This document shows positions 7,529 to 30,434 of a stretch of DNA of 64,000 nt, in pieces (position 1 is the stretch's first letter; every line of letters starts with the position of its first letter). This stretch comes from Hyphobacterium sp. (GTDB taxonomy: Bacteria; Pseudomonadota; Alphaproteobacteria; Caulobacterales; Maricaulaceae). Both the position numbers and the translations under genes were made by a program. Location of the stretch: positions 1,283,652 through 1,347,651 of the forward strand of contig NZ_OZ244227.1 of the NCBI RefSeq assembly GCF_965217055.1, written 5' to 3'. The notes beneath the pieces were generated by a model. It saw nothing but the letters and a program-made list of their open reading frames with translations. It was not told where the DNA came from and searched no databases.

Positions 7529-8497
7529 TCAGGGCTGTGGCGCCATTGGCAGCAAAGTCATGTCAGGTCGGGTCAGATTGTAGTCCTGCTCGAAGGCTGG
7601 AATCAGCGCGCAACCGGCTTCGGCATCGCCCTGGTAAATGGCCGCGACGATCGCCTGCATGCGCCGAATGGCATTCGTCAGCTCTGCCTGGCTCATCTGG
7701 TCTGCCTGGTAGCGCTCGCCAAGAAGAATGCCGTAGCCGGTGACCAACCCCATGGCGCGCGGCGGCCCATTCCCGTCCCGGCGGCAATATTCGATCGGCA
7801 TGTCGTTTGGTTCGGGCGTCACGGCGGCGGATCCTTCGCCGGATCCGACGAAGACCAGCTGCGGCACGGCGTATTCGACGGCCGGATTCCCGGTGCCGAC
7901 AAACACCAGTTCCGGGACGGCGTACTCGACATCGGATGCGCCGATTCCCACGAATATCAGATCCGGCACCTCGTAAACGATACCGGCATCGCCAACGCCG
8001 ATAAAGACCAGGTTCGGAACCGCGTATTGAACGTCCGGCGAGCCCACACCGACAAAAGCCAACTCCGGGACGGCATATTCGATATCGGCGCTATCGAAGC
8101 CGACGAATACGAGTTCTGGCACAGTGAACTCGACGCTCGAAGCGCCCATGCCGATGAAGACGAGCTCCGGAACGGGATATTCGACGACATTTTCTCCTGC
8201 TCCCACGAAAACAAGCGCCGGGACATCATATTCGATGTCTGACTCGCCAATCCCCACGAAGACCAGGTCCGGAACGGCATATTCGATGTCGCCGTCCCCG
8301 ATGCCCGCGAACACGAGTTGCGGCACTGCGAACTCGACGGCACCGTCGCCGACGCTGGCAAATGTCAGTTGCGGCACGCCGTACTCGACTTGCGGGTCGC
8401 CGGTGCCGGCAAAGACCAATGGCGGCACATCGAAATCCACCGGTGCCGTCTGAGCATGCGCCGCGCCCGTCAGCCAAGCGATCAAGACTGCCATCAA
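7529..8497 (-). CDS. Exported repeat protein: 12 tandem 17-residue repeats (VPxLVFVGxGxxxVEYA) plus a 95-aa C-terminal domain; no family recognised
   Basis: 322 aa. Short signal-like N-terminus (..LTGAAHA/QT, TTG start), then 12 consecutive 17-aa units, then a non-repetitive tail with 2 Cys. Strong third-position GC in this frame. Confidence 0.8.
   Translation of the reverse strand: MMAVLIAWLTGAAHAQTAPVDFDVPPLVFAGTGDPQVEYGVPQLTFASVGDGAVEFAVPQLVFAGIGDGDIEYAVPDLVFVGIGESDIEYDVPALVFVGAGENVVEYPVPELVFIGMGASSVEFTVPELVFVGFDSADIEYAVPELAFVGVGSPDVQYAVPNLVFIGVGDAGIVYEVPDLIFVGIGASDVEYAVPELVFVGTGNPAVEYAVPQLVFVGSGEGSAAVTPEPNDMPIEYCRRDGNGPPRAMGLVTGYGILLGERYQADQMSQAELTNAIRRMQAIVAAIYQGDAEAGCALIPAFEQDYNLTRPDMTLLPMAPQP
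7817..8428 (-). repeat. In-frame 51-bp tandem repeat array (12 units) inside the repeat-protein gene
   Basis: Units VPPLVFAGTGDPQVEYG, VPQLTFASVGDGAVEFA, VPQLVFAGIGDGDIEYA ... VPQLVFVGSGEGSAAVT. The copies are diverged at DNA level but conserved at protein level. Confidence 0.85.
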
Positions 8498-8554
8498 CGC
8501 AGCGCGAAGCGCGCGGTATTTAAAGGGAGCGCGAACGGGAAACTCGCCTATCGC

Positions 8555-8980
8555 CTAGTACTCGCCGACATGCTCGTAGGATCCATCGCCATTGACGTGG
8601 AAATATTGCACGGCGCCATTCGGATCCTGATGCGAGGACATCCACATACCCGGCCCTCCTTGATGCTGGATGTTGCAGGTCCAATCCTCGACGCTGTCCA
8701 GGAGCGAAGCGTCATTGACCGGAATTTCGATCGTGACGGTGCCGGAATAGGCCCGATCGGCATCGAGCGGTATGTCGGCATATCCGGACAGGACGCCGTA
8801 ACCGCTACTGTTGCGCAGATAGCAATAAGTCCGGACCGCAGGAACGTCCGGATGGACGTCCGAGACCTCCACCGGCACCGTGAAAACATGGGTCGGGCCG
8901 GCTTGCGCCGACGCTGCGCCGGCGCCGATCAGTCCGGCGGCGGCCAGGCTGCAAATGCCAAGGCATGATCTGATTTTCAT
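8555..8980 (-). CDS. Small secreted hypothetical protein
   Basis: 141 aa. Signal peptide MKIRSCLGICSLAAAGLIGAGAASA/QA, beta-rich mature part with 2 Cys. Lies 57 nt upstream of the repeat-protein gene on the same strand. Confidence 0.75.
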   Translation of the reverse strand: MKIRSCLGICSLAAAGLIGAGAASAQAGPTHVFTVPVEVSDVHPDVPAVRTYCYLRNSSGYGVLSGYADIPLDADRAYSGTVTIEIPVNDASLLDSVEDWTCNIQHQGGPGMWMSSHQDPNGAVQYFHVNGDGSYEHVGEY

Positions 8981-17404: not shown

Positions 17405-19720
17405 TCAATAACGGAAGGCGATGGTGCCGGTGACGGTCCGCGGATCGCCGTAGAAGGCGGTCAGCGTTCCCTCGAGGCCGAGCTCCGGAGCCAGCGTCGC
17501 ATTGTTCACAAAATCGTAGCCGGCGACGATATAGCGCTCGTCGGTCAGGTTGCGACCGTGGATGCCGAACTGCCAGCGGCCATCGTCGGAGTCCCATACA
17601 AGGCTCGCATTCCAGAGCGTGAAAGCTTCCTGGTCGATGCGGTCGAACGGGATCTCGAACTGGGTCGAATCCCCGCGATGGGACAAGGTGTTGAGGATGG
17701 TCAGCTCGCCGTTGCGCAGCGGCGTCGTATAGGTGAGCGTCGCGGCTGCCGTCAGTTCCGGCGTGTTCTGGATCTCGACCTGGTTGGAGATATCCTGGCC
17801 AAACGCATTGATGAAGGTTCCGTACTCGCCGTCGAGCAGGCCCAGGGCCCAGTCCAGTGACAGGGTATCGCCGCGGCCCGACATGTCGTCGGAAATCAGC
17901 AGCGAGCCTTCGTATTCGAGGCCGTTGATCGTGGCTTCGGCGGCGTTGGTGGTGACGCCCGTGAAGGTGTCATTGACGCCGTCGCCATCCGTGTCGACGC
18001 CGACCGAACCCGGGATCTGGACGTCCTGGTAGTCCATGAAGAAGACGGCGAGCGCATGGCGATAGCGGCCATTGTCGTAACGCCAACCGATCTCGTAGCT
18101 GTCCACTTCTTCCGGGTTGAAGCCCATGAAGTTGTAGATCTCATCAGCGCTGACATTGCCGTCGCCGTTAAAGTCCGGCGCCGCCGTGGTCTGGCCGCGG
18201 GGGTCGAAGCTGCCGCCCTTGAAGCCCTGGCTGTAGGAGCCGTAGATCGCGCTCTGGTCGTTGATCGTGAACAACAGCGAGGCGCGCGGCGAGAAATCGT
18301 CCCATTCGGCGCTGCCCTGGAAGTCGGACGTCGTCGCAATCAGCGTCGGGCTGCCGCCGAAGAATTCGGAGAAACCGCCAATATAGGTGCGGCGCAACAC
18401 GCGCGATGTGCGCTGGTCATTGGTGTAGCGGCCACCGATCGAGGCGCTGACCCATTCATTCAGGTCAAAACTGACATCGGCAAACACCGACCAGGTCTCG
18501 GTGGAGACATCGCCGAAGGTCTGGGCATTGAGCCCCGGCAAGCCGATCAGGCTGCCAAGCGGGCCGAGCACCACGTCAAACACCGTGCTGGCATTGGCAT
18601 CGAGATAATAGAGGCCGCCGACACCGCTGATCCGGTCGCCTTCGAACAGGATCTGGAATTCCTGGGAGAACTGGTCGTTCTCGTAGATCGCCGGAACGTC
18701 GAGATCGTCTGCCGGCAGGCTGTCGAAATCGATCGGCGTCGTCGATTCGTCCTGGCGATAGGACGTGATGCTGCGGAAGCTCCAATTGTCGTCATGCTGG
18801 TATTCGGCGAGCAGCGTGCCGCCAGACGCCTCGACATGCTGGTCGACGACATTGAGGCCGGCGCGGGTATCGTAGACATCGTTGAGCACAGGGGCGCCCG
18901 AGAAAGCCCCCGGGATCAGGCGGTGACCCTGGCGCGGCGCCGAATCGTCGGTCACCGTGTCACCGGACAGGCGGAAGAACCACTGGGCGTTGGGCTCGAA
19001 CTCGGCCGAAGCGCGGAAGGCCAGCACTTCCTTGTTGTAATTGTCCTGACCGGTCACGAGATTGCTGCCATAGCCGCCGCGATTGAGGCTGGCGACAGCG
19101 GCGCCGACGCGGAAGGTCTCGCTTAGCGGGGCCGATCCGGAGACGATGGCGTCGATCTGCTCATAGCTGCCGATATTGAGCCGGGCGTTCAGCGTCGGCG
19201 CGTCGGGATCGAGCCGGCGGGTGATGTATTTCACGGCGCCGCCGATCGTGTTGCGGCCGTAGAGCGTGCCCTGCGGACCGCGCAGGACTTCGATGGCCTG
19301 CACGTCGTAGATGTCGAGCACGGCCGCCTGCGGGCGGTTGAGATAGACATCGTCGAGATAGATGCCGACACCGGATTCAAACCCGGCCACCGGATCCTGC
19401 TGGCCAACGCCGCGGATGAAAGCCGTCAGTGTTGAATTGGTACCGCGGGAGACTTCCAGAGTGACGTTCGGCGTTGTCTGGCCGACAAAGGTGATGTCCT
19501 GGGCGCCCGATGTTTCCAGCGCGTCACCGGAAAAAGCCGTAACCGAGACCGGCACGTCCATGATGGATTCCTCGCGCCGGCGCGCGGTCACGGTGACGGT
19601 GTCGCGCTGGCCGTCCATGGTGGTGTCGTCCTGAGCTGCCGCAGGGGCGGCCATGACCGGCAGAAGCGACACGCTGGCCAGAAGCGCGGCGAGCCGAACG
19701 GAATGATTGCGGTATTTCAT
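17405..19720 (-). CDS. TonB-dependent receptor
   Basis: Signal peptide ..MAAPAAAQ, plug motifs DTVTVTARR and IEVLRGPQGTLYGRNTIGGA, long beta-barrel, aromatic C-terminus (IAFRY). ATG 19720 is preceded by GGAGGGAG. Confidence 0.9.
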   Translation of the reverse strand: MKYRNHSVRLAALLASVSLLPVMAAPAAAQDDTTMDGQRDTVTVTARRREESIMDVPVSVTAFSGDALETSGAQDITFVGQTTPNVTLEVSRGTNSTLTAFIRGVGQQDPVAGFESGVGIYLDDVYLNRPQAAVLDIYDVQAIEVLRGPQGTLYGRNTIGGAVKYITRRLDPDAPTLNARLNIGSYEQIDAIVSGSAPLSETFRVGAAVASLNRGGYGSNLVTGQDNYNKEVLAFRASAEFEPNAQWFFRLSGDTVTDDSAPRQGHRLIPGAFSGAPVLNDVYDTRAGLNVVDQHVEASGGTLLAEYQHDDNWSFRSITSYRQDESTTPIDFDSLPADDLDVPAIYENDQFSQEFQILFEGDRISGVGGLYYLDANASTVFDVVLGPLGSLIGLPGLNAQTFGDVSTETWSVFADVSFDLNEWVSASIGGRYTNDQRTSRVLRRTYIGGFSEFFGGSPTLIATTSDFQGSAEWDDFSPRASLLFTINDQSAIYGSYSQGFKGGSFDPRGQTTAAPDFNGDGNVSADEIYNFMGFNPEEVDSYEIGWRYDNGRYRHALAVFFMDYQDVQIPGSVGVDTDGDGVNDTFTGVTTNAAEATINGLEYEGSLLISDDMSGRGDTLSLDWALGLLDGEYGTFINAFGQDISNQVEIQNTPELTAAATLTYTTPLRNGELTILNTLSHRGDSTQFEIPFDRIDQEAFTLWNASLVWDSDDGRWQFGIHGRNLTDERYIVAGYDFVNNATLAPELGLEGTLTAFYGDPRTVTGTIAFRY

Positions 19721-19814
19721 GGTGATCTCCCTCCAGCCCTGCGGTGATTTTCGCTGACCTCGAAACACGCACGCGGCCACCGACCCGACAGGGTCCTTTC
19801 ATGTTTATTGCCGC

Positions 19815-19830
19815 CAACAAATTCAACGCT
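19815..19830. promoter_or_regulatory. Candidate TetR operator, copy 1 (CAACAAATTCAACGCT)
   Basis: Exact 16-mer also found at 20618-20633. Lies in the TonB-receptor/tetR divergent spacer and overlaps the dyad TTCAAC-gcta-GTTGAA. Confidence 0.45.
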
Positions 19831-19969
19831 AGTTGAAATGTCAATCGAAATTCATTGAGCGTTGAAATTAGTTCCGGATGTCGGCATTGATGCAACACCG
19901 GCAAATGGCTTGCGGGATGACCGGCCGGATGCGAGGGTCATTCGCAAACCTCTGATCAGGGGAGACAAA

Positions 19970-20608
19970 TTGGCCAACCGGGGTGAGATCACGCGGCAGA
20001 AGATTCTCGATTCTGCCGAGAAACTCTTTGCGCGACGCGGTTATCATGGTGTCACCATCCGGCAGATCACCCAGGATGCGGACGTCGATACGGCGCTGGC
20101 CAATTATCATTTCGGCAGCAAGCGGAATCTGTTCGATGCCGTGCTTCTGCGCCGCGCCGAGGAGCTCAACGAAGTGCGGCTGCACCGGCTCGAGGAAATC
20201 GAGGCCGCCGCCGAGAACGGCGTTGCCAGCCTGGAGGACATCATCGATGCCTTCTCGCATCCGCTGCTCGAGAAATCGGCGCGCGGCGGCCCCGGCTGGA
20301 AGAGCTATTTTGCGCTGATCGCCCAGATCAACAACTCGCCGGAATGGGGCGGCAAGCTGATGACGGAGTATTTCGATCCTCTGGTGCGGCGCTTCATCGC
20401 CGCCATCAAGCGCGCTCTGCCCGACGCGTCGGAAGCCGACATTTACTGGAGCTATCACTTTTTTTCCGGCGCGCTGGTGCTGACCTATGCCGAGACCGGC
20501 CGCATCGACAATCTGTCGGACGGGGTCGTTCATTCCAGCGACCTCGATGCCGTTCAGCTGCGCCTGCCGCCCTTCATCGCGGCCGGGTTCCGGCGGCTTT
20601 GCGAGTAA
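19970..20608 (+). CDS. TetR/AcrR family transcriptional regulator
   Basis: HTH ILDSAEKLFARRGYHGVTIRQITQDADVDTALANYHFGSKRNLF. TTG 19970 with GGGGAG upstream is favoured; the track ORF begins at 19862. Confidence 0.85.
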   Translation: MANRGEITRQKILDSAEKLFARRGYHGVTIRQITQDADVDTALANYHFGSKRNLFDAVLLRRAEELNEVRLHRLEEIEAAAENGVASLEDIIDAFSHPLLEKSARGGPGWKSYFALIAQINNSPEWGGKLMTEYFDPLVRRFIAAIKRALPDASEADIYWSYHFFSGALVLTYAETGRIDNLSDGVVHSSDLDAVQLRLPPFIAAGFRRLCE

Positions 20609-20617
20609 AGCCACACT

Positions 20618-20633
20618 CAACAAATTCAACGCT
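20618..20633. promoter_or_regulatory. Candidate TetR operator, copy 2 (CAACAAATTCAACGCT)
   Basis: Same 16-mer as 19815-19830, located between the tetR stop and the acyl-CoA synthetase start. Embedded in the dyad TCAACAAA-N18-TTTGTTGA. Confidence 0.45.
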
Positions 20634-20705
20634 TGTCTAAATTTTGTTGACGGCAGCGCGCCTTCGCGCCCACCATGAGGTCGGGCTGAAGGGGAGGCTC
20701 GCAGC

Positions 20706-22256
20706 ATGCCATTGCGGCTGACATCGCACGCACCGTTCTTTCCCGAGATCCTGTCACTGCACGCGCGCTGGCGCAGCGGACAGGCGGCGCTGGTCTGTGA
20801 GAAAAGCGGCACGCTGAGCTGGGCCGAATTCGAGGCGGCTGCCAATCGCCGGGCCAATGCCTTCCTGGCTTCCGGACTGCAACCGGGCGACGCCATCGCC
20901 CTGGCCATGTCGAACAGCGCGGAAATGGCGCTGGTGATTGCCGCGGCGATGAAGGCCGGGCTGGTCACCGCGCCGCTCAATACCAGCGTCCAGCCGGATG
21001 CCATGCTGACGATGATCAGAGACGCAGGGGCGCGTGCGGTCGTCGCATCGCCAACCCATGCCGCATCGCTGGACGCTGCCGCGGCAGATGCCGGCGGCAA
21101 ACTGCCCGAGCTGAAGCTGCTCGACGGCACTGACCATTCCGTCTGGCAGGCGCTGGACGCATGGGCGCAAGGCGCTGCCGACAGCCCGCCGGCCTGGCGC
21201 GCGAAGCGCGACGATCCGCTCAACATCATCTATTCGTCGGGGACGACCGGGCAGCCGAAGGGCATTTTGCACACGCACGGCACGCGGCTCGACTGGGCCT
21301 ATGATCTTGCCATCGCTCTGCGTTATCATTCCGGCGCCCGCACGCTGGTCGCGCTGGGGCTTTATTCCAATATCAGCTGGGTGATGATGCTGTGCACCTG
21401 GCTGGCCGGCGGCACGCTGCACATTCGTCCCGGCTTCAGCGCGGCCGATGTGCAGGACCAGACCGCCCGACATGGCATCACGCACACCGCCATGGTGCCG
21501 GTGCAGTATCAACGCGTTCTCGACGATCCGGGTTTCGATGCCGGCCAGCTGGCTTCGCTGCAATACGTGATGTCCTGCGGATCGCCCTTACTGGCGCACA
21601 CCAAGGCAGCCTGGCTGGAAATCTGTCCCGGGGTGATCGAGCTCTACGGGCTGACCGAGGGGCTGATCACGACACTGGACCCGGAGGATGCGCCGGGCCG
21701 GCTGGCCTCGGTCGGCAAGCCGCTGGCGGGTACCGATATCCGAATCCTCGACGATGACAACCAGAATTGCGCTCCCGGCACCGCCGGAGAGATTGTCGGC
21801 CGCGGCCGGATCGCCATGCCCTTCTATCACAATCGATCCGATGCGACCCGCGAGGCGAGCTGGACGGACGAGACCGGCGCTGTCTGGCTGCGCACCGGCG
21901 ATATCGGCCAGCTGGACGAAGACGGTTTCCTCTACATTGTCGATCGCAAGAAGGACATGATCGTGTCCGGCGGACAGAATATCTATCCCAAGGACATCGA
22001 GACGGTGCTGATCGGGCACGAGGCCATCGCCGATGTCGCGGTAATCGGCATTCCCGACGCCAAATGGGGCGAAACACCGCTGGCAATCATCGTCGCTGCG
22101 AACGGCGAGGCGCCGGGTGCAATGGCCCTGGTCGAGTGGGCAAACGCCAGGCTGGGCAAGCAGCAACGCCTGCGTGGCGCGCGCTTTGTCGACGAATTGC
22201 CGCGCAATGCGAACGGCAAGGTGCTGAAACGCGAACTGCGTGCCCGGTTCGGATAG
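20706..22256 (+). CDS. AMP-dependent synthetase/ligase (acyl-CoA synthetase)
   Basis: 516 aa. AMP-binding signature IIYSSGTTGQPKGILHTHG and GDIGQLDEDGFLYIVDRKKDMI. Confidence 0.9.
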   Translation: MPLRLTSHAPFFPEILSLHARWRSGQAALVCEKSGTLSWAEFEAAANRRANAFLASGLQPGDAIALAMSNSAEMALVIAAAMKAGLVTAPLNTSVQPDAMLTMIRDAGARAVVASPTHAASLDAAAADAGGKLPELKLLDGTDHSVWQALDAWAQGAADSPPAWRAKRDDPLNIIYSSGTTGQPKGILHTHGTRLDWAYDLAIALRYHSGARTLVALGLYSNISWVMMLCTWLAGGTLHIRPGFSAADVQDQTARHGITHTAMVPVQYQRVLDDPGFDAGQLASLQYVMSCGSPLLAHTKAAWLEICPGVIELYGLTEGLITTLDPEDAPGRLASVGKPLAGTDIRILDDDNQNCAPGTAGEIVGRGRIAMPFYHNRSDATREASWTDETGAVWLRTGDIGQLDEDGFLYIVDRKKDMIVSGGQNIYPKDIETVLIGHEAIADVAVIGIPDAKWGETPLAIIVAANGEAPGAMALVEWANARLGKQQRLRGARFVDELPRNANGKVLKRELRARFG

Positions 22257-22290
22257 AAAACGGACCGGAGACAACGCTCCGGCCCGGCTT

Positions 22291-22315
22291 GATCCGTCGA
22301 AGGATCAGAGTTTTT
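22291..22315 (+). terminator. Intrinsic terminator after the acyl-CoA synthetase gene
   Basis: GATCC-gtcgaa-GGATC followed by agagTTTTT. A second hairpin, CCGGAG-acaacg-CTCCGG, lies at 22265-22282. Confidence 0.5.
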
Positions 22316-22320
22316 CCGTC

Positions 22321-22839
22321 CTAGCGGCGGTGCGCGTAGGACCCTGCGAATTCCCATTCGCCATGGCTGTTGCGGCACATTTCGAACGAGCCGCGATCAT
22401 AGTCACCATATCCCGACCAGGATTCGGATTCGAAACTGGCGCAGGTCTGGTGGCCGCGACGATAATAATCGCGGGGCTGGATGGCGCCCTTCGCACCGGT
22501 CCTGGGATTTTCCCAATAGGACGGTGCCCGATACTCTGCGGACCAGCCGCTGGCATGGGCATACTGGCGCTCGTCACACTCGTTGAAGCGGCCCGAGAGC
22601 CCGACATTCACGTTCAGGACCGGACCAACATCCAGCATTGCGCCCAAACCCAGCCCGCCAGACGAGCGCGGCTGGCAAGCGCGCTCGAAATAACGGAAAT
22701 TCTGGCGGTCGTAACCGCCCTCGTAATAGCTGTGGTGATAGCTGAAACTGGTGGATCCACCCGATTGTGCGTAGGCACCGGCGCTTGCGAGCGCGACCAG
22801 CGGCAAGGCGGTGGCGAGGAAAAGCTTCTGAATCTGCAT
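22321..22839 (-). CDS. Secreted Tyr/Gly-rich 4-Cys protein, unknown family
   Basis: 172 aa from ATG 22839 (AGGAGGA SD). Signal peptide MQIQKLFLATALPLVALASAGAYA/Q; four Cys. An ECF-type promoter lies just upstream. Confidence 0.75.
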   Translation of the reverse strand: MQIQKLFLATALPLVALASAGAYAQSGGSTSFSYHHSYYEGGYDRQNFRYFERACQPRSSGGLGLGAMLDVGPVLNVNVGLSGRFNECDERQYAHASGWSAEYRAPSYWENPRTGAKGAIQPRDYYRRGHQTCASFESESWSGYGDYDRGSFEMCRNSHGEWEFAGSYAHRR

Positions 22840-22877
22840 GACATCCTCCTTTGCAAATGACGTCCTGCAAGGAAGAC

Positions 22878-22903
22878 AACGCATGACAGGCGATTTTTAT
22901 TCC
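22878..22903 (-). promoter_or_regulatory. ECF-type promoter GGAATAA-N15-CGTTGTCT for the 4-Cys protein gene
   Basis: Read on the minus strand. The -35 overlaps the anti-sigma stop codon and the -10 lies 38 nt before ATG 22839. Confidence 0.5.
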
Positions 22904-23592
22904 CGCCAATCTGCAGCGGCCGCCCGTTCGACGGATTCGGCATCCAGAGGGTCGCCGTCAATGCGCCGGTCAATCTCGTCCAACAGGGTGGACGGAAGGG
23001 GCGACGCAGCGAGCTGGTAGCCTGCCGCCGGCCTTTCCTCGCCGGAGATCAGCAATTGCACCTGCCAGCCCTGTTCCGCGCGGCAGGCGAGACCACGCGT
23101 GGCAGCGGACGTCCCGGCGAAAGCACGGCAATATCGTCCGCTCTCGTCGCGGAAGGTGACCGGAATCTGCCAGGCCTCGCTGCCAACAGGGGCATCGAGA
23201 GCTGCCGCGAGCTGCGCATTGGCCAATGTTGACTGCCCGGAAATGCCGGAATCCGTTGCCAGGAACTGGGCGCCAACAAAAAGGCCCAGCGCCAGACTTG
23301 CCAGCGCGGCCAGTCCCGGTGCTGCCAGGGGACCGGTGAACCAGTTGCGAATCCGGTCGGCCACGCCGTAGGCGGGCGCCTCCTCGCCCAGCAAGGCGGC
23401 GAACCGCCGGGGCACCGGATCGTTGGCGACGGGCGCATAGTGTGAGCGGATCCTGTTGGCGAGACGACGCTGCGCCTGTGTACGTGCGGCAAGGTCCGGA
23501 TCGGCCTCGAGGTCAGCTTCGAAACGGGCCTGACTTTCAGCCGGCATCTCGCCATCGACGAAAGCCAGAATGTCTTCATCGCGCCAGCTCAT
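22897..23592 (-). CDS. Single-pass membrane anti-sigma factor
   Basis: 231 aa. The start overlaps the sigma gene stop by 4 nt. N-terminal anti-sigma-like helix (DEDILAFVDGEMPAESQARFEADLEADP), central TM helix, periplasmic domain with 2 Cys. Confidence 0.75.
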   Translation of the reverse strand: MSWRDEDILAFVDGEMPAESQARFEADLEADPDLAARTQAQRRLANRIRSHYAPVANDPVPRRFAALLGEEAPAYGVADRIRNWFTGPLAAPGLAALASLALGLFVGAQFLATDSGISGQSTLANAQLAAALDAPVGSEAWQIPVTFRDESGRYCRAFAGTSAATRGLACRAEQGWQVQLLISGEERPAAGYQLAASPLPSTLLDEIDRRIDGDPLDAESVERAAAADWRE

Positions 23593-24101
23593 GCGGCGTC
23601 TCCCTCGCTCTCGGACAATTGCGCTTCAAGCGCCTGGCGACCACGCGCCAGGCGGCTGGTCAGCGTGCCCATCGGTATGTCGAGTACGGATGCCGCTTCC
23701 TTGTAGGACAAGCCCTCCACGAGGACGAGCGAAACCGCGATGCGCTGCTCGGCGGGCAAGGTCTGCATTGCGGCCTCGACGGACAGGGCGCGGATCCGCT
23801 TGTCGAATGCCGGGTCCTCGGCCCCGACGCCGGTTCCGGCCTCTTCCGGCGCAAAAGTGGCGGCCCGCCGGGTGCGGGCCCTGATCTCGTCGATCCAGAT
23901 ATTCTTGATGATCCTGTACATCCAGCTGTCCAGTCTTGTCCCGGCCTGAAACTGGCCCGACCGGGTCAGCGCTCGCTCCAGCGCCATCTGGAGCAGATCG
24001 TCGGCATCTGCGTCATTGGGCGCCAGAGACCGGCTGAACCGCCGCAAGCGCGGCATGATTTCCAGCAATCCCGCCCGAAATTCGGCATCTTTTCGCGGCA
24101 T
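23589..24101 (-). CDS. ECF (sigma-70 family) RNA polymerase sigma factor
   Basis: Region 2 (ADDLLQMALERAL ... DSWMYRIIKNIWIDEIR) and region 4 (LVLVEGLSYKEAASVLDIPMGTLTSRLARGR). ATG 24101 preferred, because the track start at 24143 lies inside the promoter palindrome. Confidence 0.9.
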   Translation of the reverse strand: MPRKDAEFRAGLLEIMPRLRRFSRSLAPNDADADDLLQMALERALTRSGQFQAGTRLDSWMYRIIKNIWIDEIRARTRRAATFAPEEAGTGVGAEDPAFDKRIRALSVEAAMQTLPAEQRIAVSLVLVEGLSYKEAASVLDIPMGTLTSRLARGRQALEAQLSESEGDAA

Positions 24102-24115
24102 GCTATTATTCCGGC

Positions 24116-24148
24116 AACGAATGGAAGAATGCGTTTCTTCCATACGTT
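24116..24148. promoter_or_regulatory. 33-bp near-perfect palindrome holding two interdigitated divergent ECF-type promoters (GGAAGAA-N15-CGTT on each strand)
   Basis: AACGaATGGAAGAA-tgcgt-TTCTTCCATaCGTT. Plus-strand motif at 24123-24148, minus-strand motif at 24141-24116. Confidence 0.6.
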
Positions 24149-24205
24149 ATCGATTTTGCGGGTCCGGCATAGTCCGCCGGCTCAATGGAATCCGGAGGCC
24201 CTGAC

Positions 24206-25465
24206 GTGTTGCGCCTGTTGTTTCTTGCGGTGTTCTGGCTGGCCGCGGCGCCGGCCTTCGCCCAGCTCGGATTGCCCAACCGGCTGCCGGTGCGCCTGCC
24301 GGATACGCCGCTGGGCGAACCGGAGCGATTGCTGGACGAGCTTGATCGACGCGTCCTCGACGAGATCGAGGATGCCCGGCGTGACACGCTGAACACCTTG
24401 CTTCGCGCCCATCGCGATCTGCTGGAGCGGGCGCCGGGAGGCGATGTCGTGCTGCGCGGAGAAGTGATCGTGATCGATCCGTCGCCGGCCCTCCTCGCTC
24501 TGGCCAGTGCCGCCGGGTTCACCGTGATCGAGGACCGCAGCGAACCGGCGCTGAACTTGCGTTATCTGCGCTTGCGCGCGCCGAGGGGGATCGGCACCCA
24601 GGGCGCGCTTGGCCTGTTGCAGCAGTTCGATCCGGGCGGGCTGTTCGATCTCAACCCGATCTACACGCTGTCGGGTGAAGCAGGCGGCCGCAAGACCGTC
24701 CAGGACGCAGGGATCCGCAATGATGTGCGGATCGGCATGATCGATGCCGGAGTACCGGCCGATAGTTTCTCACCCGGGCAGGTGATGACCCGCGCCTTCC
24801 GCGGGTCGCGCGTCGCGCCGCACGAGCACGGTCTGCAGGTCGCCGCCATCCTGGCATCGGCCGACGGAGCGGCGCCGGGGGCGCGGCTCTTTGCTGCCGA
24901 TGTCTACGGCGGGGAACCGACCGGCGGCTCGGCCGACACGATCCTGCGGGCGCTGGGCTGGATGGCGGAAGCGGATGTGCGGGTCGTCAATATCAGCATT
25001 GTCGGACCGCGGAATGTCGCCTTGCGCGCCGCGATTGAACGCTTCACCGCACAAGGCCGGATCGTCGTCGCGGCGGTCGGCAATGACGGAGCAAATGCGC
25101 GGCCGCTCTATCCGGCCGCCTATCCGCAAGTGATTGCCGTAACCGGCGTTGATGCCAGCCATCGCATCCTGCCGGAGGCAGTGCAGGGCGATCATGTCGA
25201 CTTCGCGGCGCGCGGCATGGACATGGTCTGGCCGTCGCTGAACGGGCGGCGGGTACAGGTGCGCGGCACGTCTTTCGCCGCCCCGATCGTCGCCGGTCTC
25301 CTTGCCACGGAAATCGCCGCAGGACGTCCGCCACAGGACGCTGAAGCCGCGCTCGCCGCCAGCGCTCGCGATCTCGGCCGGCGCGGCCGCGACGATGTCT
25401 ACGGGCATGGCGCCGTGGGCGATAACCTGTTCCGCGCACGGCGAGCCGATCTGCGCCGCCGCTAG
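24206..25465 (+). CDS. S8 family (subtilisin-like) serine peptidase with N-terminal pro/extra domain
   Basis: Catalytic residues in IGMIDAG (D), HEHGLQVAAIL (H), AAVGNDG (N), GTSFAAPIVAG (S). Signal peptide VLRLLFLAVFWLAAAPAFA/Q. GTG 24206 with GGAGG 7 nt upstream is favoured over the track ATG 24185. Confidence 0.9.
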   Translation: MLRLLFLAVFWLAAAPAFAQLGLPNRLPVRLPDTPLGEPERLLDELDRRVLDEIEDARRDTLNTLLRAHRDLLERAPGGDVVLRGEVIVIDPSPALLALASAAGFTVIEDRSEPALNLRYLRLRAPRGIGTQGALGLLQQFDPGGLFDLNPIYTLSGEAGGRKTVQDAGIRNDVRIGMIDAGVPADSFSPGQVMTRAFRGSRVAPHEHGLQVAAILASADGAAPGARLFAADVYGGEPTGGSADTILRALGWMAEADVRVVNISIVGPRNVALRAAIERFTAQGRIVVAAVGNDGANARPLYPAAYPQVIAVTGVDASHRILPEAVQGDHVDFAARGMDMVWPSLNGRRVQVRGTSFAAPIVAGLLATEIAAGRPPQDAEAALAASARDLGRRGRDDVYGHGAVGDNLFRARRADLRRR

Positions 25466-25474
25466 CTTTATTCC

Positions 25475-25500
25475 GGAAGAAACCTCCCGCTCGATCCGTT
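25475..25500 (+). promoter_or_regulatory. ECF-type promoter GGAAGAA-N15-CGTTGTCT for the anchored low-complexity protein gene
   Basis: Same heptamer and spacing as the palindrome copies. Lies 59 nt before ATG 25559 (SD GAAGGGAGG). The track TTG start (25499) falls inside the -10. Confidence 0.55.
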
Positions 25501-25558
25501 GTCTGACATGACGGACCCGGCCCACCGGCCGGTTCCCGGTCCGCGAAGGGAGGATTTC

Positions 25559-26419
25559 ATGCGTACGCTTTTGACCATTGCCACCATCCTGGCCGCCATC
25601 CCGGCCGCACACGCCCAGCTCGGCACGGTGACCGGTACAGTGCAGGATACCACGCAGCTCGAGACCGACGCGCTCGATCTCGACGCGACCAGCCGGATCG
25701 GCTCGCGCCTGCAAACCGATGTACCGACCTCGCGCATCGAGCAAATGCGCCAGCGCCGCGCCCTGCGGGAGGCCCGCAGTGCCGCTGTCGAAGCGCGCGA
25801 GGCACCGATAATGAACACCGGATCGCAATCGGCGGTGCAAACGGGTGTCGCGGATACGGCCTCTGCCGCCGTTTCGAATACTGCGGCAGCATCCGCCACG
25901 CCGCGCCAATCCACCGCCTCGGCGGTCACGACCAGCTCTGCTGACATTGCCGGCCAGACCGCTGTTGCCGGCCAATCCACGATTGTGACGGTCGACCCGC
26001 CGGCCCCGCGTCCCGTGGCGCGGGTGCAAAGCGCAGCCGAAACGGTCGATGACGCCGCCGCGTCAATCGCGGTGGAGGTGCCATCTTCTTCCGTGTCCGT
26101 GCCGGCGGTTAGCGCCAGCGCGCCTGCCGTGGCGGTGACCTCGCCCGCCCCGCGCCCCGCTTATGTCGGGTCCGGGGGCTCCACGGTCATTATCCGCGAT
26201 CGCAGCCAGCCGGCCCAGGCCGAACCCGTCGCGGCCACACCGCCAGCGCTTCAACCCGCTTCGCGCGTGACGCCGCAGCCGGTGCCGGCCCGCGCGGCCA
26301 ACAGATGGATTGATCCGCAAAGCATTTCCGAGAATGCCTTCTCAATCTGCTGCGCGCTGCTGCTCGTCCTGACGCTGCTGATGGCGGCGCACATGCTGAC
26401 CCGTCGCCGGGTCCGGTAG
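25559..26419 (+). CDS. Exported Ala/Ser/Thr/Pro/Val-rich (mucin-like) protein with C-terminal membrane anchor
   Basis: 286 aa. Signal peptide MRTLLTIATILAAIPAAHA/Q, long low-complexity region, C-terminal TM (FSICCALLLVLTLLMAAHML) followed by TRRRVR. Confidence 0.75.
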   Translation: MRTLLTIATILAAIPAAHAQLGTVTGTVQDTTQLETDALDLDATSRIGSRLQTDVPTSRIEQMRQRRALREARSAAVEAREAPIMNTGSQSAVQTGVADTASAAVSNTAAASATPRQSTASAVTTSSADIAGQTAVAGQSTIVTVDPPAPRPVARVQSAAETVDDAAASIAVEVPSSSVSVPAVSASAPAVAVTSPAPRPAYVGSGGSTVIIRDRSQPAQAEPVAATPPALQPASRVTPQPVPARAANRWIDPQSISENAFSICCALLLVLTLLMAAHMLTRRRVR

Positions 26420-26442
26420 ATATCCGGATAGGCATGGCTCCC

Positions 26443-26469
26443 GGGGCGGTCTTCGGGCCGCCCCTTTTT
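26443..26469 (+). terminator. Intrinsic terminator after the anchored-protein gene
   Basis: GGGGCGG-N8-CCGCCCC followed by TTTTT. Confidence 0.75.
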
Positions 26470-26472
26470 GCC

Positions 26473-28470
26473 TCAGCGCGTAATCCGCAGGCCGATGCTC
26501 ACCGCTCGTTCCTCGCCGGGGAAGTAGCGGGCACTGCCAAAGGCAAAGTCGGCGCGCTCGGCATAGCGGATATCTGCGAGATTGCGGATCGTCCCGATCA
26601 ATGTGACGCGGTCATTGGCGGACCAGCGCAGGCGCAGATTGAGGAGGTCATGCCCGTCATAGTCATTGGCATTGGCGGCATCGGTAAAATAGCCACCGAC
26701 ATGCACCCATTCGAGGCCAGCCCGGAGCCGGTCGGTGGCCTGCCAGTCGAGGCGGGCATTCCAGAGCCATTCGGGCGCCGAATCGATACGATTGCCGGCA
26801 CGGATGAGTTCGCTGGCATTGCCCACCACCCGGTCGAAATCATAACTGTGCTCGGCCCAGCTTCCCGCGAGCGCGACATCGAGACGCTGTGTCAGCGGCC
26901 AGTCGAGATCGAACTCGATGCCGTGATGGCGCGTCGCACCATCGGTGACATTGAAGCCATCGGCATCGCGAAAGAAGACATTCGTCTTGCGCATGGCAAA
27001 GGCGACCAGTTCGAGGCGGCCGCCACCGGCAAAACCGCGGCGGTAGCCGATTTCCGCATTGTCGAGCACTTCCGGTTCAATGCCGGAAATGTCCTGACCG
27101 GGTTGCAGCCGGTAGAGCTCGGCGGTCTGCGGCGCGCGGCTGCCGCGCGCGAGGCGTGCAAACACCGCTCTGTTGTCAGCAAGCTGCCAAACCAGCCCGG
27201 CATGCGGGGTCAACACCGCGAAATCGTCTGTGCGGTCCGGCGGGCGCAGATAGCGGCCGACAGTGTTGGCGGGCAAATGATTGTCATAGTCGAAGCGCGT
27301 GGCTTCCCAGCGCGCGCCGGCGTGCAGCGTCCATGCCGGCGACAGCGACCAGCGAGCCTGCGCATAGAGCGCCGCGACATCCGCCCTCACCGTGTAATCA
27401 TAATGTTCGCCCTGCACGAAGGAGAAAACGGTCGGCCGCTCCTGGGTTTCCGTCAGATAGCCTTGCGTACGCTCGATATCTGCACCCAGTGTCAGGCGAC
27501 CGGACGCGGCTTGCCGGACCAGCGCGGCCTGCAGACCGATACTGTCATGACCGCTTTCCTCGAGCGCCTCTGACGGCAGGAAATGCATACGGAAATCCAT
27601 CGCATTGGACCGGGCGTAGGGGGTCAGCGACCCGTGCCACGGGCCGTCGAGATCCGCTTCGAGCCGCAAGGCTGCGCGCACGGTATAGGCATCGCGGAAA
27701 CCCTCCGGATCCGGATTACTGCGCGATAGCGACAGATTCTCATAGGCGCGCGGGCCGCGAATATAGCCGGCGGTCTCCTGGTTGAGCGAGATCGCTGCGA
27801 GGGTGAAGCGCCAGTCGAGTCGCGGCGTGCTGCCTTGTGCGCGCAACAAGGCTTCGAGCCGGTCGAGCCCGGCCTCGGCGCGCCAGCCCTCCTCGTGCTG
27901 GCCTGCCAGGCCGGCCAGCCATTGCAGGTTTTCCGACGTCGCGCTCCACAGCGCGTGTCCGCGTACGCGGCCGAGGGAGCCGGCTTCCAGCTCCAGCGTC
28001 GGTGGCAGTGTGGCCGGGCCGGGCGTGCGATAATTGATCAGTCCATGCAGCGCATTGGAGCCGTAAAGCGCCGGGCCCGGACCCCGCACGATCTCGACAC
28101 TGCCGGTCAGTCCGCCAAGCGCCTCGAACAGGCCGTTGACATTGGCAAAGCCGGCGGCGCGCAAAGGGATTCCGTCCTCGAGATAGAGGAAGGACCCCGC
28201 CCCGGCGCCCCCGGTCAGGACCGGCGACCGGATGGCGGTGAGATGCTCGACGCCGTTGCCACGATTGATGAAAGCGCCGGGCGTGCGGTTGACCAGCTCG
28301 GCCGGGTGCTGGGATCCGGTCTCGATAATCGCATCGCGCGAGATAAACGTGATCGGCAATACGGTTTCGACGCGTGCCTCGCCGCGGCGGTCTCCGGTGA
28401 CGACGATGACGTCCTGCGCAATGGCCGGTGCGGCAAAAAACAAGAAGGCAGCAATGAAAGCGCGGGTCAT
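26473..28470 (-). CDS. TonB-dependent receptor
   Basis: 665 aa. Signal peptide ..APAIA/QD, plug motifs (VIVVTGDRR, GAFINRGNGVEHLTAIRSP, VEIVRGPGPALYGSNALHG), beta-barrel. Confidence 0.9.
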   Translation of the reverse strand: MTRAFIAAFLFFAAPAIAQDVIVVTGDRRGEARVETVLPITFISRDAIIETGSQHPAELVNRTPGAFINRGNGVEHLTAIRSPVLTGGAGAGSFLYLEDGIPLRAAGFANVNGLFEALGGLTGSVEIVRGPGPALYGSNALHGLINYRTPGPATLPPTLELEAGSLGRVRGHALWSATSENLQWLAGLAGQHEEGWRAEAGLDRLEALLRAQGSTPRLDWRFTLAAISLNQETAGYIRGPRAYENLSLSRSNPDPEGFRDAYTVRAALRLEADLDGPWHGSLTPYARSNAMDFRMHFLPSEALEESGHDSIGLQAALVRQAASGRLTLGADIERTQGYLTETQERPTVFSFVQGEHYDYTVRADVAALYAQARWSLSPAWTLHAGARWEATRFDYDNHLPANTVGRYLRPPDRTDDFAVLTPHAGLVWQLADNRAVFARLARGSRAPQTAELYRLQPGQDISGIEPEVLDNAEIGYRRGFAGGGRLELVAFAMRKTNVFFRDADGFNVTDGATRHHGIEFDLDWPLTQRLDVALAGSWAEHSYDFDRVVGNASELIRAGNRIDSAPEWLWNARLDWQATDRLRAGLEWVHVGGYFTDAANANDYDGHDLLNLRLRWSANDRVTLIGTIRNLADIRYAERADFAFGSARYFPGEERAVSIGLRITR

Positions 28471-28594
28471 GCGGGAGCAATGTAGTCAGCCCGCCGCGCA
28501 GGGCAATTTGACGGCGGCGGCAGATGACATTTCGCGTTACCGCGCTAGGCTTTTTGCGGGGGATGGTTGCGGGGACAGGTGGAGGCCGGGCTTG

Positions 28595-29383
28595 ATGACG
28601 TACTGGCGCATGATTGCCGCGATCGCGGCTTGCAGCCTGCTGGCGCCGGACGCGTCGGCCAATCGCCGCACTGCGCTGGAGATCGAGGCAGATTACACGG
28701 CATCCGTACTGGTGTTTCGCGTGGGCCGTGTGTCGCTCAATGCAAATCTCGGCATCGACGGCTATGCCGCCCGGGCGCATGTGCAAGCGGCCGGGCTGGC
28801 GGCCCTGTTCACCGATTTCTCGATCGATTCGGACGTGGAAGGGCTCTTCGCGCAAGGCCATCCGGTACCGGTCAATTACGGCCATATCGAACGGACAGGT
28901 GACAAGACCCGTGTGGTCGATGTCGATTTCGAGGACGGGATCGCACGGTCCACCGCTTCACCGGCCTTCTCGTCATGGGGCGATCCGCCGGCGAGCGAAA
29001 CCGACCGGACCGGCGTGGTCGACCCGATGACGGCGACGCTGCTGCTCTCGGAACTCGTCACGGCTAGCGACAGCGCGCCCTGTGAAGGCGTGATCCCGGT
29101 CTTCGACGGCAAGCAGCGCTATGATCTCAATCTGGTTTCGCGTGGCATTGAAACCATCCGCACGCGCGGCTATCGCGGCGAGGTTCTGGTTTGTGATGCC
29201 TATTATGCGCCGATTTCCGGCTATGACCCGGAGGATTGGCCGGAACCGGGCGAAACCCGGCACCCCTTGCGCATGTGGATCGCGCCGATCGGCGACGGCA
29301 CAGCTTTCCTTCCCGTCCGCCTGCACACACGGGCCGGATTTGGCGGCGTGACGGTGGAATTGCGCGAATTGCGGCTGGATTAG
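28595..29383 (+). CDS. DUF3108 domain-containing exported protein
   Basis: 262 aa from ATG 28595 (MTYWRMIAAIAACSLLAP..). Pattern Y.A....F.VG...L...... plus the C-terminal VTVELRELRL resembles DUF3108. The track ORF start at 28232 is shadow. Confidence 0.65.
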   Translation: MTYWRMIAAIAACSLLAPDASANRRTALEIEADYTASVLVFRVGRVSLNANLGIDGYAARAHVQAAGLAALFTDFSIDSDVEGLFAQGHPVPVNYGHIERTGDKTRVVDVDFEDGIARSTASPAFSSWGDPPASETDRTGVVDPMTATLLLSELVTASDSAPCEGVIPVFDGKQRYDLNLVSRGIETIRTRGYRGEVLVCDAYYAPISGYDPEDWPEPGETRHPLRMWIAPIGDGTAFLPVRLHTRAGFGGVTVELRELRLD

Positions 29384-29459: not shown

Positions 29460-30239
29460 TTAGCCCACCGATGCCATGCCGGATACATCCGCCCGCGTCG
29501 CATTCAGCACGATGGCCTGTGCGTCCGCGTCGAACATTGCATCGCTTTCCGAGACAGCAACAACACCCTCGGTATTGATGCCCGAACGGTCGAAGTGAAC
29601 CTGACCATTCGTGTCGGCGTCATAACGGGCGACGGTACCGATGCGATAGCCGTCACTGCTGTAAACGGCCACATGGCCGCTTCCGCCGGCGTGGGAGGAC
29701 GCCGCGGCGCCGGTATAGGCCGACGCACTGTCCGGCGCATCAGCGCTGACCGAACCGCCCGCATACATTTGCGAGCGCTGCTCCAGCTGCGATGCCAAGC
29801 GGGCGCTGGCATTGCTGCGGTCATAGGCCGTCAGCGAGGTTTGCAGCGTCTGGCGCATGCGCGTCTGCGCGTCCAGCGTGGCGTCGGTCTGGGCGTTGAC
29901 CGTGTCGTCAACACCAAGATCCGTGTTCACACCGCTGTCCAGGCGAGAATCGATATCCGTCTGTTGGTCGAGTCGGGAATCGATATCCGTCTGCTGGTCC
30001 AGGCGCGAATCAAGGTCCGTCTGTTGGTCCAGCCGGGAATCAAGATCTGTTTGCTGATCGAGGCGGGAGTCGATTCCGCTGCGCTGGTCGACGATGCCTT
30101 GCGTGGTCTGGCTTGTCGTGGACGACAAGGAGCCCCGCGTCTGGTTCTGGACAGAACCCGTGAGGTCGGTGACCTGCGCCATAGCTGCCGTCGTCGGCAG
30201 GATCATGGCCAGTACAAGGCCGGTCGTTGCGATTTTCAT
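29460..30239 (-). CDS. Secreted protein with five DSRLDQQTD decapeptide repeats and a possible PRC-barrel-like C-terminus
   Basis: 259 aa from ATG 30239 (GGAGAG SD). Signal peptide MKIATTGLVLAMILPTTAAMA/Q. The C-terminal VYSSDGYRIGTVARYDAD... is PRC-barrel-like (weak recall). Confidence 0.75.
   Translation of the reverse strand: MKIATTGLVLAMILPTTAAMAQVTDLTGSVQNQTRGSLSSTTSQTTQGIVDQRSGIDSRLDQQTDLDSRLDQQTDLDSRLDQQTDIDSRLDQQTDIDSRLDSGVNTDLGVDDTVNAQTDATLDAQTRMRQTLQTSLTAYDRSNASARLASQLEQRSQMYAGGSVSADAPDSASAYTGAAASSHAGGSGHVAVYSSDGYRIGTVARYDADTNGQVHFDRSGINTEGVVAVSESDAMFDADAQAIVLNATRADVSGMASVG
29937..30092 (-). repeat. In-frame 30-bp tandem repeat (5 units)
   Basis: (I/L)DSRLDQQTD four times plus IDSRLDSGVNTD, preceded by the degenerate VDQRSG. 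Confidence 0.8.
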
Positions 30240-30272
30240 TTCAAGCTCTCCATTGGTTGCGAGCACCAATAC

Positions 30273-30297
30273 AACGCGAAGGCCAAATCGGAGTTCC
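30273..30297 (-). promoter_or_regulatory. ECF/EcfG-type promoter GGAAC-N16-CGTTGTAT for the DSRLDQQTD-repeat gene
   Basis: Read on the minus strand. The -10 lies 33 nt before ATG 30239. Confidence 0.5.
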
Positions 30298-30434
30298 GGG
30301 AGAATGCATATCGTGATCAGAGCGCCGGGGCACCCGGCCTGGCGTACTGCAAAATGACGTTCACGGCAGGACTGCAATTCGCTTGACGCACCACGGCGAT
30401 GCGCAATGCTTCGGCGAACAATGGAGACTTACCC

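Follow-up and report, generated by a model that had tools for sequence, protein, structure and literature searches.

A 64-kb stretch of DNA (64,000 nucleotides of contig NZ_OZ244227.1, hereafter referred to as the window) contains a group of five genes in four transcription units (22261–26474) that centers on an extracytoplasmic function (ECF) σ factor, a membrane-bound anti-σ factor, and an exported subtilase of peptidase family S8. We conclude, with high confidence, that this region represents one copy of a self-contained, autoregulated ECF cassette together with its local regulon. The core of the cassette consists of the σ/anti-σ operon, a divergently transcribed gene encoding the pro-subtilase (S8), and, right after the S8 gene, a σ-dependent gene encoding a secreted low-complexity protein. 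In the window, the low-complexity protein is an Ala-rich protein, and a fifth gene, located downstream of the anti-σ factor gene, encodes a Tyr/Gly-rich secreted protein. An initial annotation of this DNA had described the five genes as wired together, a description borne out by the presence of the same ECF-type promoter on each of the four transcription units. All five open reading frames (ORFs) were found on the strands that had been assigned to them, and the nearest database proteins are from Hyphobacterium (Maricaulaceae, Alphaproteobacteria).

Conservation of the cassette was assessed in a total of 160 loci from Alpha-, Beta-, and Gammaproteobacteria. One set of loci was seeded with S8 (a degenerate-pattern scan with an S8 alignment in species-representative genomes, which identified at least 559 relatives among 600 matches; the best 80 loci were used) and the other with the σ factor (an alignment of the σ group, A4, with 61% mean identity, against metagenome contigs; 80 loci). 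The S8-seeded loci were from Caulobacterales, Maricaulaceae, and Sphingomonadales, from Burkholderiales, and from Steroidobacteraceae, Arenimonas, and Ectothiorhodospiraceae. By tblastn, genes encoding the σ and anti-σ factors were found directly upstream of S8 and on the opposite strand in essentially all non-truncated loci of this set, and σ adjoined S8 in approximately 72 of the 76 non-truncated loci; one locus presented σ, anti-σ, and S8 in that order on a single strand, and the absence of σ or anti-σ mostly reflected truncated contigs. All-against-all clustering of ORFs from the 80 genome loci yielded only three recurrent families, S8 (80 loci), σ (72), and anti-σ (71); the other large clusters represented shadow ORFs on other frames, and the next genuine family was present in only seven loci. 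Among the σ-seeded loci, 59 had 700 nt or more of upstream sequence, and S8 adjoined σ in 57 of these; anti-σ directly followed σ in all 65 testable loci. One σ-seeded metagenome locus (L152) includes 2 kb of upstream sequence without S8 and represents a rare natural exception. Because the linkage was recovered from both search directions, σ, anti-σ, and S8 can be considered to travel as a unit amid otherwise unrelated neighborhoods. The same layout was found on an 880-kb replicon of Sphingomonas parapaucimobilis, where the RefSeq names are anti-sigma factor, RNA polymerase sigma factor, S8 family serine peptidase, and hypothetical protein.

These data refine the initial annotation, which had named synteny among related genomes as a test. 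Linkage of σ, anti-σ, and S8 holds with very few exceptions in three proteobacterial classes, while the Tyr/Gly-rich gene is linked to the cassette only in Maricaulaceae and the Ala-rich gene is conserved by position only. The proposal that all five genes form a travelling set is therefore not upheld, as the Tyr/Gly-rich gene adjoins the cassette in one family only and the detectable sequence relatives of the Ala-rich protein are confined to that clade.

Promoter motifs were identified by counting bipartite words in the intergenic regions between σ and S8, which yielded GGAAG-N17-CGTT on the σ strand, positioned at a constant distance upstream of σ in 53 of 76 genome loci. The AGAAA extension of the −35 element was conserved although the search pattern had left it free, giving the consensus tGGAAGAAA-N14-tCGT(T/A) for the sites in the genome loci and tGGAAGAAA-N14-CGTT for the version present in the window. 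A position weight matrix (PWM) built from the σ-upstream sites was scanned across the full window, and the four best scores (25.1, 23.4, 22.3, and 17.9 bits) corresponded to the four promoters of the cluster, which are located within 3.1 kb of each other; the fifth-best score was 14.4, and shuffled windows yielded 0 to 2 matches of at least 15 bits. The highest score (25.1) was obtained for the autoregulatory promoter of the σ/anti-σ operon (24114–24142, minus strand; −35 element GGAAGAAA at 24141–24134, −10 element CGTT at 24119–24116), which leaves a leader of only about 8 nt before the σ start codon. The promoter of the Ala-rich gene (25474–25502, plus strand; −35 element GGAAGAAA at 25475–25482, −10 element CGTT at 25497–25500; PWM 23.4) begins 9 nt past the S8 stop codon. 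An internal promoter that the initial annotation had assigned to the Tyr/Gly-rich gene proved to be a genuine ECF-type site (22876–22904, minus strand; −35 element GGAATAAA at 22903–22896, −10 element CGTT at 22881–22878; PWM 22.3); it overlaps the end of the anti-σ gene, the TAA stop codon of which falls inside the −35 element, and it is retained in loci L001–L003 (22.3–26.0 bits). The S8 gene is preceded by the fourth site (24122–24150, plus strand; −35 element GGAAGAAT at 24123–24130, −10 element CGTT at 24145–24148; PWM 17.9). Since the same σ-type promoter is located ahead of the σ operon and of the S8, Ala-rich, and Tyr/Gly-rich genes, the five genes are predicted, from sequence, to form one local regulon. 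This fifth match, at 44912 on the minus strand, was rejected; it lies antisense within a long ORF (44513–46675, P-type ATPase-like by eye) and probably occurs by chance.

The σ and S8 promoters interdigitate in a 33-bp imperfect palindrome (24116–24148; 26 of 33 positions matching), in which the −35 element of the σ promoter is located in the spacer of the S8 promoter and vice versa; the two promoters are probably not occupied simultaneously. The same arrangement was found in loci L001–L003, L005, and L006. An even more compact arrangement was observed in the σ–S8 intergenic regions of three Sphingopyxis loci (L057, L070, and L077), which contain a perfect inverted repeat, GGAAGAAACG-N12-CGTTTCTTCC, with each arm representing the −35 element of one divergent promoter and the −10 element of the other.

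Dependence of S8 on σ varies by lineage. A σ-type promoter of at least 12 bits was identified upstream of S8 in 30 of 76 loci (mainly Alphaproteobacteria, with the window included), as compared to 0.8% of control windows. Loci from Burkholderiales presented a degenerate site (GGATTTTC-N14-CGTT) upstream of S8 that might work weakly, and a relaxed regular expression for weak S8 promoters brought no gain over the PWM. Downstream of S8, a promoter on the S8 strand was found past the S8 stop codon with at least 12 bits in 64 of the 75 loci with enough flanking sequence, and with at least 15 bits in 59 of these. Upstream of S8 in the window, a σ70-like site (24082–24109, plus strand; TCGGCA-16-TATTAT with a TG extension) overlaps the start of the σ gene; it is not significant (one site found versus 0.7 expected), and it could provide σ-independent basal expression of S8.

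Four start codons were revised based on the positions of the promoters and of the Shine-Dalgarno sequences. The ECF σ factor gene (23589–24101, minus strand; 170 aa) starts at ATG 24101 and not at 24143, because the σ promoter falls within the longer ORF. Its product contains Sigma70_r2 (E = 4.8e-12) and Sigma70_r4_2 (E = 4.6e-14) and no further region, which is the composition of an ECF (group 4) σ factor; it scored 77.5 bits for TIGR02937 (cut-off 42.9), its best NCBIfam match was PRK12511 (133 bits, under the cut-off), and its σ2 region matches PhyR_sigma2. The gene arrangement appears typical of ECF systems as well, with a putative cognate anti-σ factor encoded downstream and a predicted autoregulatory promoter that has a CGT-type −10 element.

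The anti-σ factor gene (22897–23592, minus strand; 231 aa, supported by ORF, model, and alignment) shares 4 nt with the σ gene (23589–23592), such that its ATG overlaps the σ stop codon. This overlap, the presence of a single transmembrane segment (approximately residues 88–112), and two periplasmic Cys residues agree with the initial annotation. In the AlphaFold2 model (predicted local distance difference test, pLDDT, 78), helices in residues 5–56 are modeled with confidence, and residues 1–56 represent a helical cytoplasmic region that is predicted to bind σ. Residues 121–231 form a periplasmic alpha/beta domain, also modeled with confidence, with a helix, four strands, and two helices; C155 and C170, which are located on neighboring strands, are invariant in 29 homologues and at least 90% conserved in 71. 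A fold search with the periplasmic domain gave no PDB match with E < 0.3, and a profile search of PDB sequences with the anti-σ factor gave only a weak NepR match. Family matches of the N-terminal region were all weak, with zf-HC2 (E = 0.065), NepR (E = 0.00097, 19.2 bits versus 25.7), and NF052375 (24 bits versus 100) under the respective cut-offs; a Foldseek match to RslA (probability 0.60) was weak as well. The HxxxCxxC zinc motif is absent from this protein, residues 1–150 of which contain no Cys; if the N-terminal region is an anti-σ domain (ASD), it is a non-zinc ASD. Two regions are of low model confidence, namely a conserved loop (Y192, A195, and S197) and the linker that follows the transmembrane segment; both are probably flexible, judging from the model, and one might speculate that they represent candidate cleavage sites.

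The S8 gene (24206–25465, plus strand; 419 aa) most likely starts at GTG 24206, which is preceded by GGAGG and matches a 419-aa database gene call; an alternative ATG is located at 24185. The protein matches PF00082 (86.6 bits versus a cut-off of 21.8), and D187, H215, S363, and the oxyanion N300 (numbered from ATG 24185) are invariant in alignments of 21 and 58 sequences. The AlphaFold model (mean pLDDT 86.9) presents, numbered from GTG 24206, a signal peptide, a disordered Pro-rich linker, a helix (37–68), a beta-alpha-beta-beta-alpha-beta unit (73–155), and the catalytic domain. The top Foldseek matches were unautoprocessed pro-subtilisin E and pro-Tk-subtilisin, over 370–420 columns that include the propeptide. 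A Pfam sequence search did not detect an I9 domain, and the modeled fold is that of an I9-type propeptide. The region of about 190 aa that the initial annotation had described as an extra domain can thus be accounted for by a signal peptide and a helix, followed by an I9-like propeptide, indicating that S8 is likely produced as a zymogen. As no anchor or secretion domain was identified, S8 is most simply placed in the periplasm. By analogy with subtilisin E, the propeptide junction would have Tyr at P1 (..NPIY|TL..). The nearest curated relatives of S8 are the maturation proteases mycosin, QhpE, and PatA, all of them under the respective cut-offs. The residue after the predicted signal peptide cleavage site is an invariant or near-invariant Gln followed by Leu or Val, both in the S8 family (A26/Q27) and in the Gly-rich family described below (A24/Q25); this +1 Gln, which is more strictly kept than is usual at such a position, might reflect a pyroglutamate N-terminus or a common recognition motif.

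Across loci, the gene after S8 encodes a protein of 130–390 aa, and these downstream low-complexity proteins matched no Pfam or NCBIfam family. The majority form is Gly-rich: its signal peptide, which ends in an invariant A-x-A|Q, is followed by a Gly-rich segment (QLLGGxLGG...), then by a helix-like stretch rich in Arg and Ala, and finally by a long Ala/Gly/Ser/Thr-rich tail with hardly any aromatic residues and no Cys. The secreted low-complexity protein is probably disordered. The Gly-rich gene of two Caulobacterales loci (L013, 3654–4351; L015, 3728–4536) is convergent to, or located behind, the anti-σ gene and not after S8, and these relocated genes retain a strong σ-type promoter (29.3 and 20.5 bits, respectively).

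The corresponding gene in the window (25559–26419, plus strand; start codon preceded by GGGAGG) encodes the 286-aa Ala-rich, “mucin-like” protein. Its composition (20% Ala and approximately 10% each of Thr, Ser, and Val), its signal peptide (AHA|Q), and its C-terminal transmembrane segment followed by RRRVR were as initially annotated; an Arg/Ala-rich helix-like stretch and a long disordered region are located in between. Detectable sequence relatives of this protein are confined to Maricaulaceae, and the window protein and five Maricaulaceae relatives occupy the same slot, with the same promoter type, as the Gly-rich proteins. The Maricaulaceae type shares an AQ(L/V)G..G junction and the Arg/Ala-rich stretch with the Gly-rich type and differs from it by the C-terminal anchor. 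A phmmer search detected no homology between the Ala-rich protein and the Gly-rich group, while hhalign gave a probability of 93.8% over only 27 columns, including the signal peptide. The Ala-rich protein is therefore a positional and architectural equivalent of the Gly-rich protein, with homology not proven.

The Tyr/Gly-rich gene (22321–22839, minus strand; start codon preceded by AGGAGG) encodes a secreted protein of 172 aa with 12% Gly, 8% Tyr, and four Cys residues. A central segment is glycine-zipper-like and the C-terminal region distantly resembles the 17-kDa surface antigen; the match to PF16998 (23.6 bits versus 26.6; E = 4.6e-5) is under the gathering threshold. Among ten relatives tested, P0159 (29.9 bits) and P0171 (88 bits) passed this threshold, and P0157, P0162, and P0165 presented weak sub-threshold Gly-zipper matches. 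Classical 17-kDa antigens and SlyB have a lipoprotein signal peptide with a lipobox Cys; the signal peptide of the Tyr/Gly-rich protein ends in ASAGAYA|QSGG, which contains no Cys and hence no lipobox. Based on these matches, the protein appears to be a distant relative, and not a member, of the PF16998/glycine-zipper family. The initial annotation had placed none of the three cargo proteins in a recognized family; this assessment stands for the Ala-rich protein, and it needs to be qualified for the Tyr/Gly-rich protein, with its weak match to the 17-kDa antigen/glycine-zipper family, and for S8, the extra region of which is I9-like. An exhaustive search of 1.8 billion clusters retrieved only 29 representative relatives of the Tyr/Gly-rich protein. 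Among the loci, the gene is located directly beside the cassette only in Hyphobacterium, and all cassette-linked copies are from Maricaulaceae; it looks like a gene for a lineage-specific envelope protein that was recruited to the regulon. One Maricaulis locus (L005) contains a homologue (8194–8745; 36% identity) just 3′ of the low-complexity gene and on the same strand; without a separate promoter match, it is probably co-transcribed with that gene.

The linkage and promoter data bear on whether S8 is a regulator or an output of the cassette. Promoters of this type are nearly universal ahead of the σ operon and of the gene for the disordered protein, the σ-dependence of S8 varies by lineage, and S8 is linked to σ in approximately 97% of loci. 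As the S8 gene has a recognizable σ-type promoter in only approximately 40% of loci, S8 is probably expressed independently of σ in most lineages, as an upstream component. A pure product, or an enzyme acting on the disordered protein alone, would be expected to use the promoter of that protein, while a role in signal transduction or surveillance requires that the protease is present before induction; the distribution of S8 promoters thus lends more plausibility to a regulatory role than to that of a pure output. We tentatively favor, as an explanation that is still short of probable, that S8 acts on the anti-σ factor as the dedicated periplasmic protease of the cassette, with positive feedback in this lineage. 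S8 would be produced as a zymogen and activated by removal of the propeptide; active S8 would then cut the periplasmic part of the anti-σ factor, and this cut would allow intramembrane proteolysis by an unlinked site-2 protease, which would free σ. Free σ would boost transcription of its own operon, of the gene for the disordered protein, and, in this lineage, of S8 as well. As for the disordered protein, it may represent the functional product, or it may damp S8 by acting as a competing substrate. Precedents exist for both elements of such a scheme, as mucD, which encodes a periplasmic protease, is part of the algU-mucABCD operon and modulates that pathway, and as the eukaryotic site-1 protease is a subtilase. 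A more specific version, drawn by analogy, in which a linked subtilase serves as a site-1 protease convergent with the eukaryotic enzyme and zymogen control combines with a σ-induced decoy into a self-limiting pulse generator, is unlikely on present data.

Several observations weigh against a role of S8 in cutting the anti-σ factor. Contact between the two proteins, or cleavage of one by the other, is something that we infer. The periplasmic domain of the anti-σ factor is compact and probably disulfide-bearing, and hence no obvious protease substrate. A mirror-tree analysis of 111 cassettes gave a partial r of 0.437 for the S8 catalytic domain versus the periplasmic region of the anti-σ factor and of 0.438 for the same domain versus the cytoplasmic region, with no specific excess; all parts of the cassette were correlated (r = 0.45–0.68), and this analysis did not discriminate between the models. 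S8 has a σ-type promoter in this genome, which fits a plain output, and, as degenerate −35 variants may conceal additional S8 promoters, the figure of approximately 60% of loci without such a promoter represents an upper bound. The known bacterial site-1 proteases (DegS, PrsW, Prc, and signal peptidase) are, to our knowledge, not linked to σ genes, and none of them is a subtilase.

In another explanation, which is conceivable and yet rather doubtful, the anti-σ factor senses a signal by itself (e.g., through its conserved disulfide), its processing falls to unlinked housekeeping proteases, and S8 and the disordered protein are the products of the system, with S8 maturing or trimming the disordered protein into an envelope-protective, adhesive, or matrix polypeptide. 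The invariant C155 and C170 in the sensor domain, the σ-type promoter on S8 in this genome, the similarity of S8 to curated maturation proteases (under the cut-offs), and a downstream protein of a composition ideal for a protease substrate are all consistent with such a pair, as is the fact that the low-complexity gene always adjoins S8 on one strand, with no terminator between the two in the window. However, a pair of this kind would be expected to form one operon, whereas in 64 of 75 loci the second gene retains a strong promoter of its own; most loci also lack a recognizable σ promoter on S8, and the cassette persists in L013 and L015, where the Gly-rich gene has left S8. The apparently σ-independent expression of S8 in many loci would suit a MucD-like surveillance function, in which S8 lowers signaling by degrading activating misfolded or disordered periplasmic proteins, maybe including that of the cassette itself, such that loss of S8 would turn σ on. 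The algU-mucABCD operon provides a precedent for tight linkage between a protease and a σ/anti-σ pair, and the neighbor of S8 encodes a disordered protein; however, most subtilases with an I9 propeptide are specific or secreted enzymes and do not serve quality control, and the data fit other models equally well. We regard this function as quite unlikely. We consider it very unlikely that the cassette is an ordinary regulon in which the main target of σ, S8, happens to be a secreted protease of nutritional or general function, and in which the downstream ORFs are fast-evolving fillers without a common function. Such fillers could explain the lack of Pfam and NCBIfam matches and the minimal sequence likeness between the Maricaulaceae and Gly-rich types, but not that a conserved promoter, an A-x-A|Q signal peptide, and a layout with a Gly-rich segment followed by an Arg/Ala-rich stretch recur in three classes; moreover, a mere target would not stay linked to σ in 97% of loci amid varying surroundings.

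Both ends of the cluster present terminator-like hairpins followed by a T-run, one 3′ of the Tyr/Gly-rich gene at the left boundary (22261–22286, minus strand) and one after the Ala-rich gene at the right boundary (26443–26464, plus strand); as terminator-like sites overall were no more numerous than in shuffled sequence, both hairpins are positional hints only. The flanks (17405–22256 and 26473–29383) contain genes encoding two TonB-dependent receptors, a TetR regulator, an AMP-binding acyl-CoA synthetase, and a DUF3108 protein. None of these genes is conserved beside the cassette in other loci, and the TonB receptors, the TetR regulator, and the acyl-CoA synthetase were rejected as parts of the system on this ground. 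Further downstream, a gene at 29460–30377 (minus strand) encodes a secreted protein with approximately five tandem copies of the 10-aa sequence DSRLDQQTD(L/I), specified by a 30-nt repeat (array at 29937–30082). The mature N-terminus of this protein (AQVTDLTGSVQNQT) is similar to that of the Ala-rich cassette protein (AQLGTVTGTVQDTT); the repeat protein had no Pfam match, and its gene had no σ-type promoter (top PWM score 4.6). The region 22300–26450 was found complete in four public sequencing runs, from one sample labelled as a single organism, and partially in a run labelled “algae metagenome”; this distribution suggests that the DNA comes from a bacterium associated with, or contaminating, another cultured organism.

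ECF σ/anti-σ pairs represent the third major mode of bacterial signal transduction, and the activation of most groups is little understood. The cassette, which is present in at least several hundred species and is compact, with four conserved genes, provides a clean test case, in particular since the protease stays attached to the σ pair through extensive changes in gene context. If S8 indeed controls the anti-σ factor, regulated proteolysis in bacteria would gain a new class of protease, and synthetic biology a portable, orthogonal switch; if S8 instead matures the disordered protein, the cassette would specify a new regulated envelope or surface product of soil and aquatic Proteobacteria.

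Among known systems, σE-RseA-RseB/DegS/RseP and AlgU-MucA-MucB-MucD/AlgW are similar to the cassette in that an autoregulated ECF σ factor is co-transcribed with a single-pass anti-σ factor and control is exerted at a periplasmic point; the AlgU-Muc system of Pseudomonas also includes a linked gene for a periplasmic serine protease, mucD, that modulates signaling. In contrast to these systems, the protease of the cassette is a divergently encoded S8 enzyme with a propeptide and not an S1/HtrA protease with a PDZ domain, no RseB/MucB homologue is part of the cassette, and the periplasmic domain of the anti-σ factor is not detectably similar to RseA or MucA. In FecI-FecR-FecA, a linked partner is both a σ target and an input, a dual role that is only proposed here for S8 in this lineage; the partner in the cassette is a soluble periplasmic protease and not a TonB-dependent transducer, and the anti-σ factor is not FecR-like. 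If S8 cuts the anti-σ factor, a first cut by a subtilase would license intramembrane proteolysis, as is the case for the eukaryotic S1P/SKI-1 (SREBP/ATF6); this comparison is an analogy, with no homology claimed past the S8 fold. Pro-subtilisin E and pro-Tk-subtilisin (PDB 3whi and 2e1p) share with S8 the fold, the packing of the propeptide on the catalytic domain, and the order of the triad, while identity to S8 is approximately 22%, and the propeptide of S8 is preceded by an additional helix of 30 residues and a Pro-rich segment.

Sequence features hint at a relationship to the EcfG lineage. The EcfG promoter consensus is GGAAC-N16-17-CGTT, which resembles the GGAAG-N17-CGTT motif of the cassette; in addition, σ matches PhyR_sigma2 and a helix of the anti-σ factor (41–68) is weakly NepR-like. 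In contrast to EcfG-NepR-PhyR, the anti-σ factor is membrane-bound and the cassette is also present in Beta- and Gammaproteobacteria; neither PhyR nor a small cytoplasmic NepR was found among the neighborhood families of the genome loci.

In the searchable literature on ECF factors with subtilase, S8, site-1, or glycine-rich partners, we found no account of this cassette, and ECF54 was the sole related item. The main text of the ECF reclassification paper does not mention an association with S8 (PMC7826278). The group may already be listed in the ECF Hub classification. ECF54 of Actinobacteria has genes encoding a subtilase, a carboxypeptidase, and a CHAT protein as neighbors, and proteolytic control has been proposed (PMC8999054). 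As described there, ECF54 has no anti-σ factor and the σ factor itself is proposed to be degraded (PMC8999054); the cassette reported here, by comparison, belongs to another phylum and combines a membrane-bound anti-σ factor with an exported protease.

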